Assembly (NCBI GenBank): GCA_048938855.1
Contig: JBHLLT010000021.1
Span: forward strand, 1 to 52,581
DNA length: 52,581 nucleotides
Source: Promethearchaeota archaeon
GTDB taxonomy: Archaea > Asgardarchaeota > Lokiarchaeia > Sigyniarchaeales > SOKP01
Reading direction: 5' to 3'
Part shown: positions 2,783 through 7,953 of the stretch, piece by piece
Position numbering within the stretch: the first letter of the stretch is position 1
Layout: every line of letters starts with the position of its first letter
Notes under the pieces: generated by a model
Seen by the model: the letters and a program-made list of their open reading frames with translations, nothing else
Database searches by the model: none
What the model was told of the DNA's origin: nothing
Made by a program: the position numbers and the translations under genes

Positions 2783-5647
2783 TTAATTTTTTACTTCTAT
2801 AAAAACCTCAACGATTTTATTTTCAATTTTTAATTTCTTTATGTCTGTTTTACCTTCTAAGTTTTGAATAATAGTGTCAGCTTGTATCATTTTCTTGATA
2901 TATTTCTCATGTTTTTCTAGTGATTTTGAAATATCTTTATCAACTATTTTTAAATATAGATCAATTCGATTGTTCGTTGAGAGATTGAGTTGTTTTCTGT
3001 AATTGTTCAAATGTCTGATTAGATTTCTAGCAATACCTTCCGATCTTAATGTCGATGTAATTTTGGTGTCTAATTCAACTGTAAATTCTGACTCATCATG
3101 TTTATCAATAGTTACCTTTTTAACATTTATAGCTTCGGCTATAATTTCTAAATATTCGTTTTCAAGCTTTACTCCTTTAATGGTAAGTTCATTTAAGACT
3201 TGTCTTATTGGAATTTTTGCATTATCTCTTAATTCTAATGATCTTTTTACTATCTCTCTTGTTAATTCCATGTTTTTTAGAGTTTTAATATCAATTAAAT
3301 CTTCATTAGATTCAGGCCAAAACTCTAAATGAACTGATTTTAAATTAACAATCCCATTATTCCTAAGTTTCTGGTATATCATCTCAGAAATAAATGGTGT
3401 TAAAGGACCTAATAGTTTTGCTAAATTTGTTAATACATACGACAATGTATTCATTGCTGATAATTTTTCATTTATATTTTCACTCTTAAATCGGTTTCTG
3501 CTGTTTTTAATATACCAAGTAGAGAGATCCTCAATGAAGTTGAATAATAACCTACTAGCCTCTGATGTATCATAATCATCCATTAGTTGCGTAATATCTC
3601 GTATAAGGCTATTCAATAAACTAATCATCCATCGATCTAAAATATTATCTGATTGTAGTTTATCCGCATTAATCTCATCAATATCGATTAATGAATAAAA
3701 CTTTAACACATTAGCTAACAATAAATTAAATCTTCTATAGATTTGTTTCACTATTTCCTCTTTAAAGCTTAAATCTTGAGCCCTCATTAATTGTGATGAC
3801 ATAAGATAAATTCTTAAAGCATCAGCTCCATATTTCTCTATTATCAGGTTTGGGTCAGGATAGTTTTTTTTGGATTTTGACATTTTAGTTCCGTCTTCGC
3901 CAAGCAAATTACCATTTACTACAACATTTTTAAACGGAATTTCGTCAAATAGTAGAATTGATATTACATGCATATAGTAAAACCATGCTCTAACCTGACC
4001 AATATATTCTGATACAAAATCACTCGGGAAATTTTGCTTAAACCATTCAATATTTTCAAAAGGATAATGTTTTGCAGCATAAGGCATTGAACCCGATTCC
4101 AACCAACAGTCAAACACCTCTGATATACGATTCATTACTTTATTGCAACTTGGACATTTAAGATGGATTTTATCAACTATGTGTCTGTGTAGATCAAGAT
4201 TATCTGGAACTTCTTCAATCGCATTTTCTTGTAATTCTTTCACTGATCCAATTACTCTAATTTCATTACATTCTTCACATTCCCAGATGGGCATTGCTGT
4301 AGCCCAAAACCGATTTCTCGAAATACACCAATCAGGAGCGTTCTCTATTATCTTTTGATATCTATATGAAATTTCTTTTGGATACCAATTTATATTTTTA
4401 TTGGTTTTTAAAAGTCTCTGCTTAATTTTTTGAATGTTTATAAACCAAGCATCAAGAGCATTATATATTAATGGTGTATTACATCTATAACAGAAGGGAT
4501 ATGAATGCGTATAATCTTCTGATTCATATAAAAGATTCCGATGATGTAGATCCTCCAAGACCTCACCATCTACATCTTTAAACCATAAGCCAATCCAATC
4601 TTTTGGACCATCGGCTAACTCACCATGCTCATCAATATGTTGAATCATAGGAAGATCATACTTATTTATCATTTCATAATCAAATTCACCATAAAGTGCT
4701 ATATGAATAATTCCTGTTCCTTCTTCAGATAATACTTCATCGCCACCATCAATTACCCGATAACCTTTTTTGTCTCTCATAGTTGAAATTTGATATAAAG
4801 GTTTATACTCCTTATTTAACAATTCTTTCCCTTTAAATTCCTCAATTATTTCATATTCCTCTTTGATGTTTTCTAATTTGTTATTTATTAAGATGAAAAA
4901 TTCACCATTAACCTTTACTTTAACATATAGTTTCTTACTATTTACAGCTAAAGCCACATTTCCAATTAAAGTCCAAGGAGTTGTAGTCCACGCTAGAAGA
5001 AATGTTTTTTGTTCTTCTCTTAATTCAAATTTTGCTATAACTGATTGTTCAGTAACCTCCTTATAACTGTTATCCATAGAAATTTCAAAATTAGAGAGTG
5101 GAGTTTCACATCTTGGACAATAAAACAAGACTTTTTTACCTTTATATATAAGACCATCAGTATATATCTTTTTAAAAATATACCACACAGTTTCCATATA
5201 AGTATTATCCATAGTTTTATATGAATTATCAAAATCTATCCACTTACCCATTCGATCAACAGTTTTTTTCCATTCATTAGCATACCAAAGCACTTTTGAT
5301 CGACAAAATTCATTAAATTCTTCAACACCCATCTGATAAATTTCATTCTTCTGCCTTATATTTAAAGCTTTTTCACAAACACTTTCTATAGGAAGCCCAT
5401 GACAATCCCAACCCCATCTCCTCTCACAACGATGTCCTTTCATTGTCCAATATCTTGGGAATACATCTTTTGTTACAATGCTTAATATATTGCCATGTTG
5501 AGGTAACCCAGTAGCAAATGGAGGCCCATCATAAAATATATAAGGATTATCTTTAGGTCTTTGCTCCACACTTTCTTCAAATATTTTGTTATCCTTCCAA
5601 AAATCTATAAGTTCTATTTCCTTTTCAATATATGATATTTTAAACAC
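2783..5647 (-). CDS. ileS: Isoleucine--tRNA ligase (type 2, archaeal/eukaryote-like) with variant HIGH motif
   Basis: DGPPFATGLP, GWDCHGLPIE, WTTTPWTL, WCISRNRFW and KMSKS motifs; GTG start. Confidence 0.96.
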   Translation of the reverse strand: MFKISYIEKEIELIDFWKDNKIFEESVEQRPKDNPYIFYDGPPFATGLPQHGNILSIVTKDVFPRYWTMKGHRCERRWGWDCHGLPIESVCEKALNIRQKNEIYQMGVEEFNEFCRSKVLWYANEWKKTVDRMGKWIDFDNSYKTMDNTYMETVWYIFKKIYTDGLIYKGKKVLFYCPRCETPLSNFEISMDNSYKEVTEQSVIAKFELREEQKTFLLAWTTTPWTLIGNVALAVNSKKLYVKVKVNGEFFILINNKLENIKEEYEIIEEFKGKELLNKEYKPLYQISTMRDKKGYRVIDGGDEVLSEEGTGIIHIALYGEFDYEMINKYDLPMIQHIDEHGELADGPKDWIGLWFKDVDGEVLEDLHHRNLLYESEDYTHSYPFCYRCNTPLIYNALDAWFINIQKIKQRLLKTNKNINWYPKEISYRYQKIIENAPDWCISRNRFWATAMPIWECEECNEIRVIGSVKELQENAIEEVPDNLDLHRHIVDKIHLKCPSCNKVMNRISEVFDCWLESGSMPYAAKHYPFENIEWFKQNFPSDFVSEYIGQVRAWFYYMHVISILLFDEIPFKNVVVNGNLLGEDGTKMSKSKKNYPDPNLIIEKYGADALRIYLMSSQLMRAQDLSFKEEIVKQIYRRFNLLLANVLKFYSLIDIDEINADKLQSDNILDRWMISLLNSLIRDITQLMDDYDTSEASRLLFNFIEDLSTWYIKNSRNRFKSENINEKLSAMNTLSYVLTNLAKLLGPLTPFISEMIYQKLRNNGIVNLKSVHLEFWPESNEDLIDIKTLKNMELTREIVKRSLELRDNAKIPIRQVLNELTIKGVKLENEYLEIIAEAINVKKVTIDKHDESEFTVELDTKITSTLRSEGIARNLIRHLNNYRKQLNLSTNNRIDLYLKIVDKDISKSLEKHEKYIKKMIQADTIIQNLEGKTDIKKLKIENKIVEVFIEVKN

Positions 5648-5746
5648 CTATCTTACTTATTTTTCAATCTCAATCATTTTAACTTAAAAATTTTAAAAAA
5701 ATAATTTAATTAACATATTTTAGTTTATATCATAAATGTCGAAAGC

Positions 5747-5897
5747 TTTATTCATGAAGCAGGATGTGGAAACAAAAGCTAAGAAAATTCACTTCATAAA
5801 TAAATGAATTTAGATAATAATAATCGTGGATATGATCATAATTATATTTTTTACAAAACCTAAGAATTTACTGATAATATTCATAGCTTCCACATCC
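5747..5897 (-). promoter_or_regulatory. Putative structured ileS 5' leader (attenuator-like, alternative helices)
   Basis: Perfect inverted repeat 5888-5897/5762-5771; 14-bp helix (two G-U pairs) 5791-5804/5747-5760; the two helices cross. Confidence 0.65.
5810..5884 (-). CDS. Putative Ile-rich leader peptide MNIISKFLGFVKNIIMIISTIIII
   Basis: Read by hand: ATG at 5884, TAA at 5812-5810; 10 of 24 codons are Ile, with four consecutive before the stop; lies directly upstream of ileS. Confidence 0.65.
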   Translation of the reverse strand: MNIISKFLGFVKNIIMIISTIIII

Positions 5898-5964
5898 ACT
5901 TTATATTTTAAATAAAGTAAAATGCTCTAAAAAATATTACGGTATTTTACTAATTTTTTTAACT

Positions 5965-7953
5965 TTAATCCAAAAATATATAGTTATGCGCAATTTTTCT
6001 TTTATCCCTTCCTGCTAGGATATGAATATGTTTGATTGTTTTTAGTGACTCCTTACTAAAATTATCAATAGGAATATAAACCAATTCGCGATTTTTAACT
6101 CCTGCTAATGAATAGAAATATCTACGAGGGGGTTCTTTTGCTACATACGCTATATAACGTTCTTTTGAATAATTAATAGCTGCCTTTAGTAGACGTTCTG
6201 CTTTATTTTTTGTGTCTTTATATTCATTGTCAAAATAAGGGTCAAAAATAGATCTTATAAATTTAGCTGGAAAGATTGACAGCAACCCTCCAACTTCTAC
6301 ATGTGTAATCCCAGGACCGATAATATAATCTCCAGGGTTTGTAGAATAGAATGCCATGTCACTCTCTCTATCATGTTCTGCCCACCAAGTCAATTTATAG
6401 GGATATTTTTCTTGTTCTCCATCATCCTTATCAAATATAACAATTATAGTATCGATTTTACCTTGGATTTGTTGAATGTTTTGTACATAAATTTTTTTTT
6501 TGAAAGCCCAATTCCGAATAGTTTCCTTGATCGCTATTCCATCCATTAAACTGGATTTAAATTCCTCTATTTTAATTCTCTGATTTTTTAAATCTTTAAT
6601 TGTTTTTTTTCTAATAAAAGCAAAATAATCTTCTTCTAAAATATCCTCTGGAGGCCAAGAAACTGTGTAGTCTTTGCCTTCTTCCCATTTATTTTTCCAT
6701 TCACCTGGATATTTTTCTTCAGGTCTTTCCTTCAAAGGAATCTCTTTTTCTTCTCCATAACTGTATGGGTGGTGCCTTCTTAATTTTACATATCTACCAC
6801 TTGGATCATATCCTCCTTCTAAAGACATCTTCAAAGTTTCATAATTGTCACTTTCATCATTATACGGATATTTTATCGCCTCTTCTAAAACTTTCCATGC
6901 ATAATCATCATCAATTATGTTTTTCGAAGCAACTAATAATTGAAATAAATTGGGTAATAATCTTTTTTCTGCTATAGAAAGATTCCTAGTATATTGAAAT
7001 AAGGTTTTAAGCTTATGGAGATCTACAAATTCTTTGAATTCTTGCTCATATTGATATTTAGCTTTAATTAAAATGTTCCTTATCAACTCCTTTTTATCAT
7101 AACTACTAAATATCTTATAGAGCTCCTCAGGAGATTCTATATCTTCTAAGAGTTCTTTAGAAAACTGCTTTCTGAACTTCAACCATTTGTAAGTATGATA
7201 TGGTAATTCTCTCAAAAGGTATCTAGCATCAGAACTCCTTATATTGTAAATTTTTACATATTTATGAGGAATTAAATCTAAATTGATATCGTGTAATTGT
7301 TCTGGATTGTCTAAATAATATTTGATGTTTTCCCAATGAGCCATACCAACAATAAGCAAAATTCTGTGATATAAAGGCATCATTTTTAAAAGATGAGCAG
7401 CCATATATTTTTCTCTAAGAATATCTTTTTGAGTGTGGTCATAATTTGCATCAAATTGATCTTGATTTTTAAGGAAATCTTCCAAAATTACATTTTTTCT
7501 GAGTTTTTCTTTCTTTTTTTTAAATTTTTCTTCGAAATAATCAGATATATGATGATAAAATTTCTGAAGGCCAATATGATTAATAGCATAATCATCAGGA
7601 AGTCTGAAACTTGGTGGTAAATACTCTGAAACTGAAAGATCTATGAATTCAATGGGTATATTATGCTCAAGTCCAATTCTTATAGCTTCTATAATTGAAT
7701 CTCCTGGATCTATTGGTATAAAATTTAATTTTGATGGGTTTAAACTGTCAGCATATCCAATTAATGATAAATAGGGTAATCTATCAACAGCTTCAATAAC
7801 TTCTTCTTGAATATTATTTGGTAATTCAACAGCTATTACGTCAGGAAATGCTTTAAATAATGCTGTACGAACTAATTTCGCGAACTCAATACGAGAATGA
7901 AATGTAGGAATTACAAAAATATTTTTAAATTTTATATAAGGATTCTCATCCAT
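5965..7953 (-). CDS. Conserved hypothetical protein with TraB/TIKI-like N-terminal domain; probable partner of the MoxR ATPase
   Basis: PTFH...PDVIAVELP...REKYMA...LLIVGMAHW pattern; overlaps the upstream ATPase by 8 nt. Confidence 0.55.
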   Translation of the reverse strand: MDENPYIKFKNIFVIPTFHSRIEFAKLVRTALFKAFPDVIAVELPNNIQEEVIEAVDRLPYLSLIGYADSLNPSKLNFIPIDPGDSIIEAIRIGLEHNIPIEFIDLSVSEYLPPSFRLPDDYAINHIGLQKFYHHISDYFEEKFKKKKEKLRKNVILEDFLKNQDQFDANYDHTQKDILREKYMAAHLLKMMPLYHRILLIVGMAHWENIKYYLDNPEQLHDINLDLIPHKYVKIYNIRSSDARYLLRELPYHTYKWLKFRKQFSKELLEDIESPEELYKIFSSYDKKELIRNILIKAKYQYEQEFKEFVDLHKLKTLFQYTRNLSIAEKRLLPNLFQLLVASKNIIDDDYAWKVLEEAIKYPYNDESDNYETLKMSLEGGYDPSGRYVKLRRHHPYSYGEEKEIPLKERPEEKYPGEWKNKWEEGKDYTVSWPPEDILEEDYFAFIRKKTIKDLKNQRIKIEEFKSSLMDGIAIKETIRNWAFKKKIYVQNIQQIQGKIDTIIVIFDKDDGEQEKYPYKLTWWAEHDRESDMAFYSTNPGDYIIGPGITHVEVGGLLSIFPAKFIRSIFDPYFDNEYKDTKNKAERLLKAAINYSKERYIAYVAKEPPRRYFYSLAGVKNRELVYIPIDNFSKESLKTIKHIHILAGRDKRKIAHNYIFLD

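Follow-up and report, generated by a model that had tools for sequence, protein, structure and literature searches.

Does a short, isoleucine-rich open reading frame ahead of an isoleucyl-tRNA synthetase (IleRS) gene in an Asgard archaeon act as a ribosome-read gauge of tRNA charging? Using ribosomes to sense tRNA charging is a hallmark of bacteria, and the locus that raises this question lies on contig JBHLLT010000021.1 of a Promethearchaeota archaeon (GCA_048938855.1), of which we analysed positions 1 to 52,581 (52,581 nucleotides (nt); hereafter the window). A first-pass annotation, made from the letters alone, had proposed an unannotated leader peptide upstream of ileS. Comparison of related genomes leads us to conclude that the leader is real and conserved, and that it probably senses Ile-tRNA. 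Three features define the locus:

5810..5884, minus strand: leader upstream open reading frame (uORF) of 24 codons; open in 38 of 38 loci, with a length of 20-25 codons
5816..5824, minus strand: AUU-AUU-AUU, the putative sensor codons (codons 21-23); invariant
2783..5647, minus strand: ileS2, an accessory IleRS gene (951-954 amino acids), above the cut-off of TIGR00392 (ileS)

The minus strand from 5884 to 5810 translates as MNIISKFLGFVKNIIMIISTIIII followed by a stop. Ten of the 24 codons specify isoleucine, two of them ATA; eight fall within the last 11 codons, and a tandem four precede the TAA, which lies 162 nt from the GTG at 5647. All of this had been read correctly in the first-pass annotation. 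The gap that holds the uORF is 317 nt long and is flanked by a gene for a 662-amino-acid protein and by the 954-amino-acid IleRS gene, after which comes cysS. A count over the whole genome (30% GC), which the same annotation had suggested, found at least eight isoleucines among the last 11 codons in only 2 of 43,355 short ATG-initiated open reading frames (ORFs).

To determine which parts of the leader are kept, we compared 38 orthologous ileS2 loci, from this genome and 37 relatives in two genera, drawn from a family search of 135 genomes; L061 and L062, which carry distant IleRS types rather than orthologues, stand outside all leader counts. The uORF and its Ile run lie upstream of ileS2 in 38/38 loci, the outcome that the first-pass annotation had looked to relatives for, and no such leader precedes the housekeeping ileS at loci with upstream DNA. 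The start codon is ATG in 37 loci and GTG in one, and every length difference is a whole number of codons. Codons 2-16 depart from the consensus at ~10 of 45 bases with zero in-frame stops; the same number of random changes would be expected to place stops in ~15 of the 35 distinct sequences, a figure overstated by the kinship among them. Because the start codon, the Shine-Dalgarno (SD) spacing, the open frame and the whole-codon indels are all kept, the uORF is, by these sequence signatures, under selection for translation.

The control-codon core, ATT-ATT-ATT, is invariant (114 of 114 codons), versus 77% identity for the N-terminal codons; the fourth Ile is often replaced by R, S, G, K, Q, E or N. 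The synonymous changes that had been anticipated in the Ile run were thus not seen. Of the III runs in this genome's proteins, 140/1084 (13%) are written ATTATTATT. A tRNA-Ile(GAU) gene is present in the genome, and this tRNA decodes AUU through wobble. Two lesser elements of the first-pass annotation did not survive the comparison: at codon 16, its second in-frame ATG, most other loci have a codon for Lys, and the ATA codons, for which it had invoked agmatidine-modified tRNA, vary among loci and are irrelevant to the conserved core.

Around the uORF, a predicted promoter and a set of alternative helices were mapped:

5927..5942, minus strand: predicted BRE (transcription factor B recognition element)/TATA promoter, CCGTAA-TA-TTTTTTAG; conservation of the T-run and its flanks reaches 90% or more in alignment A2
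5889..5899, minus strand: segment 1, the SD-like GGAUGUG of the uORF; 99% column identity; shared strand of the mutually exclusive helices 1:2 and 1:4
5826..5834, minus strand: segment 2 (CAUAUCCAC, uORF codons 17-20), which pairs with segment 1; 95.6% of cells paired
5785..5811, minus strand: hairpin 3a:3b, a candidate anti-P3, directly 3' of the stop codon; 87% paired, one compensated pair
5751..5800, minus strand: helix P3, arms 5800-5791 and 5760-5751; 96% paired, 4 of 10 pairs compensated
5762..5770, minus strand: segment 4 (UCCACAUCC), the alternative partner of segment 1; 98% identity

The TTTTTAG of the promoter begins 29 nt ahead of an invariant T and a near-invariant A, and the genome-wide TATA peak lies at -30/-29 from the ATG. 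Transcription is predicted to start near 5904, 20 nt upstream of the uORF AUG, and segment 1 would therefore be transcribed. This places the promoter upstream of the uORF; that ileS transcription might start downstream of it had been named in the first-pass annotation as a way for the idea to fail. A leaderless uORF, driven from a TATA-like run at -28, was rejected since segment 1 would then go untranscribed despite covarying with two partners. Segment 1 is separated from the AUG by a 6-nt spacer (GGTG spacing in this genome peaks at 5-10 nt), and a 16S 3' end, GGAUCACCUCC, was found in the genome.

The helices, on which the first-pass annotation had rested much of its case, do covary across the loci. 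Helix 1:2 shows changes on both sides in 3 of 9 pairs. Helix 1:4 is nearly invariant (99.4% paired, two compensated pairs); its changes in L059 and L049 are compensated, in L059 within both partners of segment 1, and the segment 1/segment 4 pair of arms is unique within the genome. P3 is compensated at positions such as GC in 31 loci and AU in 7, or CG in 15, UG in 13 and UA in 10; its loop of ~30 nt contains segment 4. Hairpin 3a:3b is the weakest helix of the leader. These elements combine into two folds. Fold Y (1:2 with P3) was chosen by RNAalifold unaided and is 96% paired, with both-side changes in 7 pairs (36 cells); it scored above nearly all shuffles (0/500 for paired fraction and score), and every slid control was much lower. 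Fold X (1:4 with 3a:3b) is 94.6% paired. Mean energies are near-equal, at -27.5 kcal/mol for X and -28.0 for Y. Columns 48/49, the two bases that precede 1:4, covary with columns 193/194 at the base of the 3' arm of P3, and therefore 1:4 can invade P3. The P3 loop itself differs between the genera: it carries a small GAAA-tetraloop hairpin in genus g22 (L050, L053-L058) and is U-rich at that place in genus g1.

A screen of the genome for leaders of other aminoacyl-tRNA synthetase genes, another check that had been proposed, returned a second cognate case, a uORF with a Leu tail upstream of one of the genome's two leuS genes:

G000 C55:65130-68015, plus strand: leuS with the Leu leader; the uORF looks leaderless and ends LLAVLLL

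This uORF is kept in 30/30 loci (L076-L105), and after it comes a hairpin whose long loop is U-rich; the second leuS (C28) has no such uORF.

The explanation that we favour, and regard as likely, is that ribosomes reading the leader gauge the level of charged tRNA-Ile(GAU) and thereby control the back-up IleRS2. We are most confident of its first part: from the comparative evidence, the leader is very probably a translated Ile sensor. We infer with good, if lesser, confidence that a ribosome stalled on AUU would stall there for want of charged tRNA, switch the fold and turn ileS2 on. With ample Ile-tRNA, the ribosome would reach the stop codon, cover 3a, which should favour P3, and depart; its release would then let 1:2 form, and expression would end early. 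The most likely route is aCPSF1/FttA-type termination on U-rich RNA, now clear of ribosomes, inside the P3 loop and beyond it. Under a shortage of Ile-tRNA or inhibition of the housekeeping IleRS, the ribosome would stall at the wobble-read AUU run and bury segment 2, with 3a just at the border of its footprint; helices 1:4 and 3a:3b would form, and with fold X in place P3 would be blocked and ileS2 transcribed. We take fold X to be the ON state and fold Y the OFF state, since it is when charging fails that a back-up IleRS is needed. In footprint modelling, 3a:3b could form while codon 21 was in the A site, and the hairpin was lost by codons 23-25. A near-cognate AUU/AUA start codon in half of the lineages would lower basal output further. 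That the output runs through premature termination, with aCPSF1/FttA as our guess at the machinery, seems to us evenly balanced. A little short of that stands a broader proposal: attenuation in Asgard archaea might operate without bacterial terminators, with a stalled ribosome and a two-state fold setting aCPSF1/FttA termination at several synthetase and biosynthesis genes, and with back-up synthetases induced by loss of charging.

Several results weigh against this explanation. First, equilibrium folding of this genome's leader gave 1:4 a probability of ~1 and P3 a probability of 0 at all ribosome positions; the switch would therefore be kinetic, or 1:4 and P3 would coexist as a pseudoknot. 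Second, the lack of synonymous change in the AUU run is a pattern that an RNA-level constraint could equally produce. Third, the sequences are kin from two genera, and null probabilities are overstated accordingly. Fourth, no bacterial intrinsic terminator (a GC-rich hairpin and a U-tract) was found in the leader: P3 is followed by A-rich sequence, and a U-tract that is not universal lies ~45 nt beyond. In this genome it is

5686..5704, minus strand: U-rich tract downstream of P3, a tentative candidate for an archaeal termination site

Runs of at least six U occur downstream of P3 in 63% of leaders versus 24% of the background; this tract is mostly missing in genus g22, and counts of U4-tracts, which Lokiarchaeal aCPSF1 recognises (PMC8716108), are not clearly above background downstream of P3. 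Lastly, a search of this 97%-complete assembly for full-length KH-domain aCPSF1/FttA gave only a 443-amino-acid paralogue. Nine other assemblies of the genus are likewise without the full-length protein, and the absences are probably assembly gaps. In favour of the explanation, aCPSF1 is above the cut-off in 44/54 genus genomes.

The missing terminator also speaks for the most serious rival, namely that the same ribosome-read Ile sensor acts post-transcriptionally, on translation initiation of ileS2 or on cleavage or stability of its mRNA. We consider this unlikely, yet it deserves real weight. Segment 4 resembles an anti-SD and, in fold Y, lies free in the P3 loop; most loci show partial complementarity between it and the ileS SD. 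A weak near-cognate start would make initiation easy to control. However, the pairing of segment 4 with the ileS SD (mean -5.0 kcal/mol) is no better than background, as 59-63% of unrelated SD-bearing genes do equally well or better; segment 4 shows no covariation with the SD, and no part of the leader is less conserved than the 60-100 nt spacer (69%). No leader helix was found to sequester the downstream SD or start, as in translational attenuators of the ermC or LEU type.

A second rival dispenses with the reading of isoleucine. If the leader RNA bound a protein or a tRNA, for example in IleRS autorepression, AUUAUUAUU would be an RNA motif and its Ile reading incidental; Escherichia coli ThrRS represses autogenously at thrS. 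The high conservation of the helices would suit such a motif, as would an AUU run that never changes synonymously. Left unexplained, however, are the start codon, the SD spacing, the absence of stops and the whole-codon indels over 20 variable codons, together with the cognate Leu codons ahead of leuS. Positions 5000-7000 gave no match to the T-box or any other Rfam family, only three sub-threshold chance matches. We therefore regard this rival as improbable.

We think it quite improbable that the uORF product is a functional small hydrophobic peptide. The conserved frame, an F-L pair around residues 7-8 in most loci and the hydrophobic tail speak for a peptide, but residues 2-16 vary freely, I, R, K, E, G, S, Q and N all occur as the final residue, and constraint is strongest on pairing nucleotides or on AUU codon identity. 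Hungry-codon frameshifting or readthrough that fuses the uORF to ileS2, as in a prfB-like sensor, is scarcely credible: none of the three frames is open from the AUU run into ileS2 in any locus (0/38) and the phase is not conserved, both of which contradict a fusion product. To chance in AT-rich DNA we give virtually no credence: short ORFs with IIII number 123 genome-wide (24 with IIII at their end), but conservation in every locus, covariation, the rarity of such Ile density and the match of codons to the downstream gene all speak against it.

The gene downstream does encode an IleRS, as the first-pass annotation had it (TIGR00392, 826 bits versus a curated cut-off of 621), but it is an accessory second copy, and the housekeeping ileS lies elsewhere. 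IleRS2 is 33% identical to the 1048-amino-acid housekeeping enzyme encoded on contig C34 of the same genome. Its type occurs in 38 of the 135 family genomes, in two genera and at 66-100% identity, with a patchy distribution; the housekeeping copy is also present in 11/14 of the first carriers examined. In a quick tree, ileS2 clusters with homologues that include two named as Micrarchaeia and Woesearchaeota (SH-aLRT, the Shimodaira-Hasegawa-like approximate likelihood-ratio test, 100), apart from the housekeeping clade, which suggests exchange of ileS2 with DPANN archaea. Two further features complete the region:

5636..5649, minus strand: SD (AGGUG) of ileS2 and its probable near-cognate start, AUA at 5638-5636, from comparison of homologous codons
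1281..2705, minus strand: cysS, on the strand of ileS2, 77 nt downstream of it and possibly co-transcribed with it

The GTG at 5647, previously taken as the start, probably belongs to the SD of ileS2, with translation starting here at the AUA at 5638. At the codon nine nt after this GTG, 17 loci have ATG, 16 have ATT and 3, this locus among them, have ATA; five loci carry an in-frame stop between the two positions. In L016 and L041 the codon is ATT, and the next canonical start comes only past the HXGH motif. The start thus appears to toggle between AUG, AUU and AUA at a fixed distance from the GGUG SD, and near-cognate initiation in an archaeon is, on this comparison, probable. The KMSKS motif of IleRS2 is intact. 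At the HXGH position (residues 50-53, ~5510-5499 on the minus strand), this locus and six others read QHGN, 4 read HYGN and 27 read HYGH. One preprint (10.1101/2023.01.31.526100) links changes in the signature motifs of IleRS2 to mupirocin hyper-resistance. The MupA and MupB profiles gave 696 and 721 bits, below their 1900-bit cut-off, and by that criterion IleRS2 is not of the mupirocin-resistant type.

Other leaders and genes were seen along the way. Among DPANN-like ileS homologues (L110/L111 and L139/L140; ~60% identical), a 24-codon uORF ending SSIIIxII lies ~160 nt before ileS; this Ile tail was seen in two diverged sequences, and the downstream helix has a different architecture. Upstream of a Micrarchaeia ileS (L106) lies a 9-codon Ile mini-ORF, which was rejected because its 86% relative lacks it, and no Ile leader was found at four other distant homologue loci (L107, L108, L109 and L112); this check left out two homologues without DNA and one with too little flank. 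The database start of P0125 appears too far upstream. Directly upstream of the DPANN-like ileS of L107, at 1300-1380, lies a tRNA gene whose anticodon, read by eye, is apparently UAU (Ile). L061 (G048 C163), from a Lokiarchaeial bin, carries a distant bacterial-type ileS with the only T-box-like motif seen upstream of any ileS, on a contig that is probably a bacterial contaminant. In the present genome, a 15-codon uORF with three Trp codons stands at -199 of the gene at G000 C45:44072-45487 (plus strand), and ARAGORN reported a tRNA-SeC gene on G000 C49.

Among known systems, the leader most resembles pheM-pheST of the gamma-proteobacteria and the predicted leuS and trpS2 attenuators of Streptomyces (PMC1262725), in which a short ORF with tandem cognate codons precedes a synthetase gene. 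As in classical attenuators, it has a translatable leader ORF with an SD (38/38, from sequence), tandem cognate codons, and overlapping, mutually exclusive helices between which the position of the ribosome would select. It differs from them in its archaeal host, in its switching strand, which is the uORF's own SD, in its target, an accessory paralogue whose start is often AUU/AUA, and in its lack of a GC-rich terminator hairpin and U-tract. Because this last element is absent, we do not class it as a classical attenuator. The T-box riboswitches of bacterial ileS (in Firmicutes, and of a translational type in Actinobacteria; PMC1262725) do the same job of sensing tRNA-Ile charging. The ileS2 leader is not a T-box: the motif is absent from alignment A2, and no Rfam match came near the gathering score within 5000-7000. 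Archaeal U-tract termination by aCPSF1/FttA (PMC8716108; PMC13681488) is the candidate output machinery, but it has been described for transcript 3' ends rather than for leader-controlled attenuation, and its role here is a guess.

We found no report of a ribosome-based tRNA-charging sensor in archaea in the literature searched, most subscription papers being outside its reach. The leader offers a compact, mutable reporter for whether archaeal ribosomes functionally steer RNA polymerase or aCPSF1, a kind of coupling for which a 2025 review finds direct evidence still scarce (PMC13681488), and it corrects the annotation by adding a uORF and probable AUU/AUA starts. Closest in the absence of an intrinsic terminator are the LEU element before leuA in Actinobacteria (PMC1262725), which also has a cognate-codon run and an alternative or pseudoknot fold, and the Cys-run leaders reported before actinobacterial cys operons (10.1101/834739). 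In the LEU element, however, the Leu codons pair with the SD of the downstream gene, whereas the Asgard leader shows no such pairing beyond background. Conservation of such a sensor in Asgard archaea would reveal how the closest lineage to eukaryotes measures its amino-acid supply, by a means that stands between the attenuators of bacteria and the uORF control of eukaryotes.
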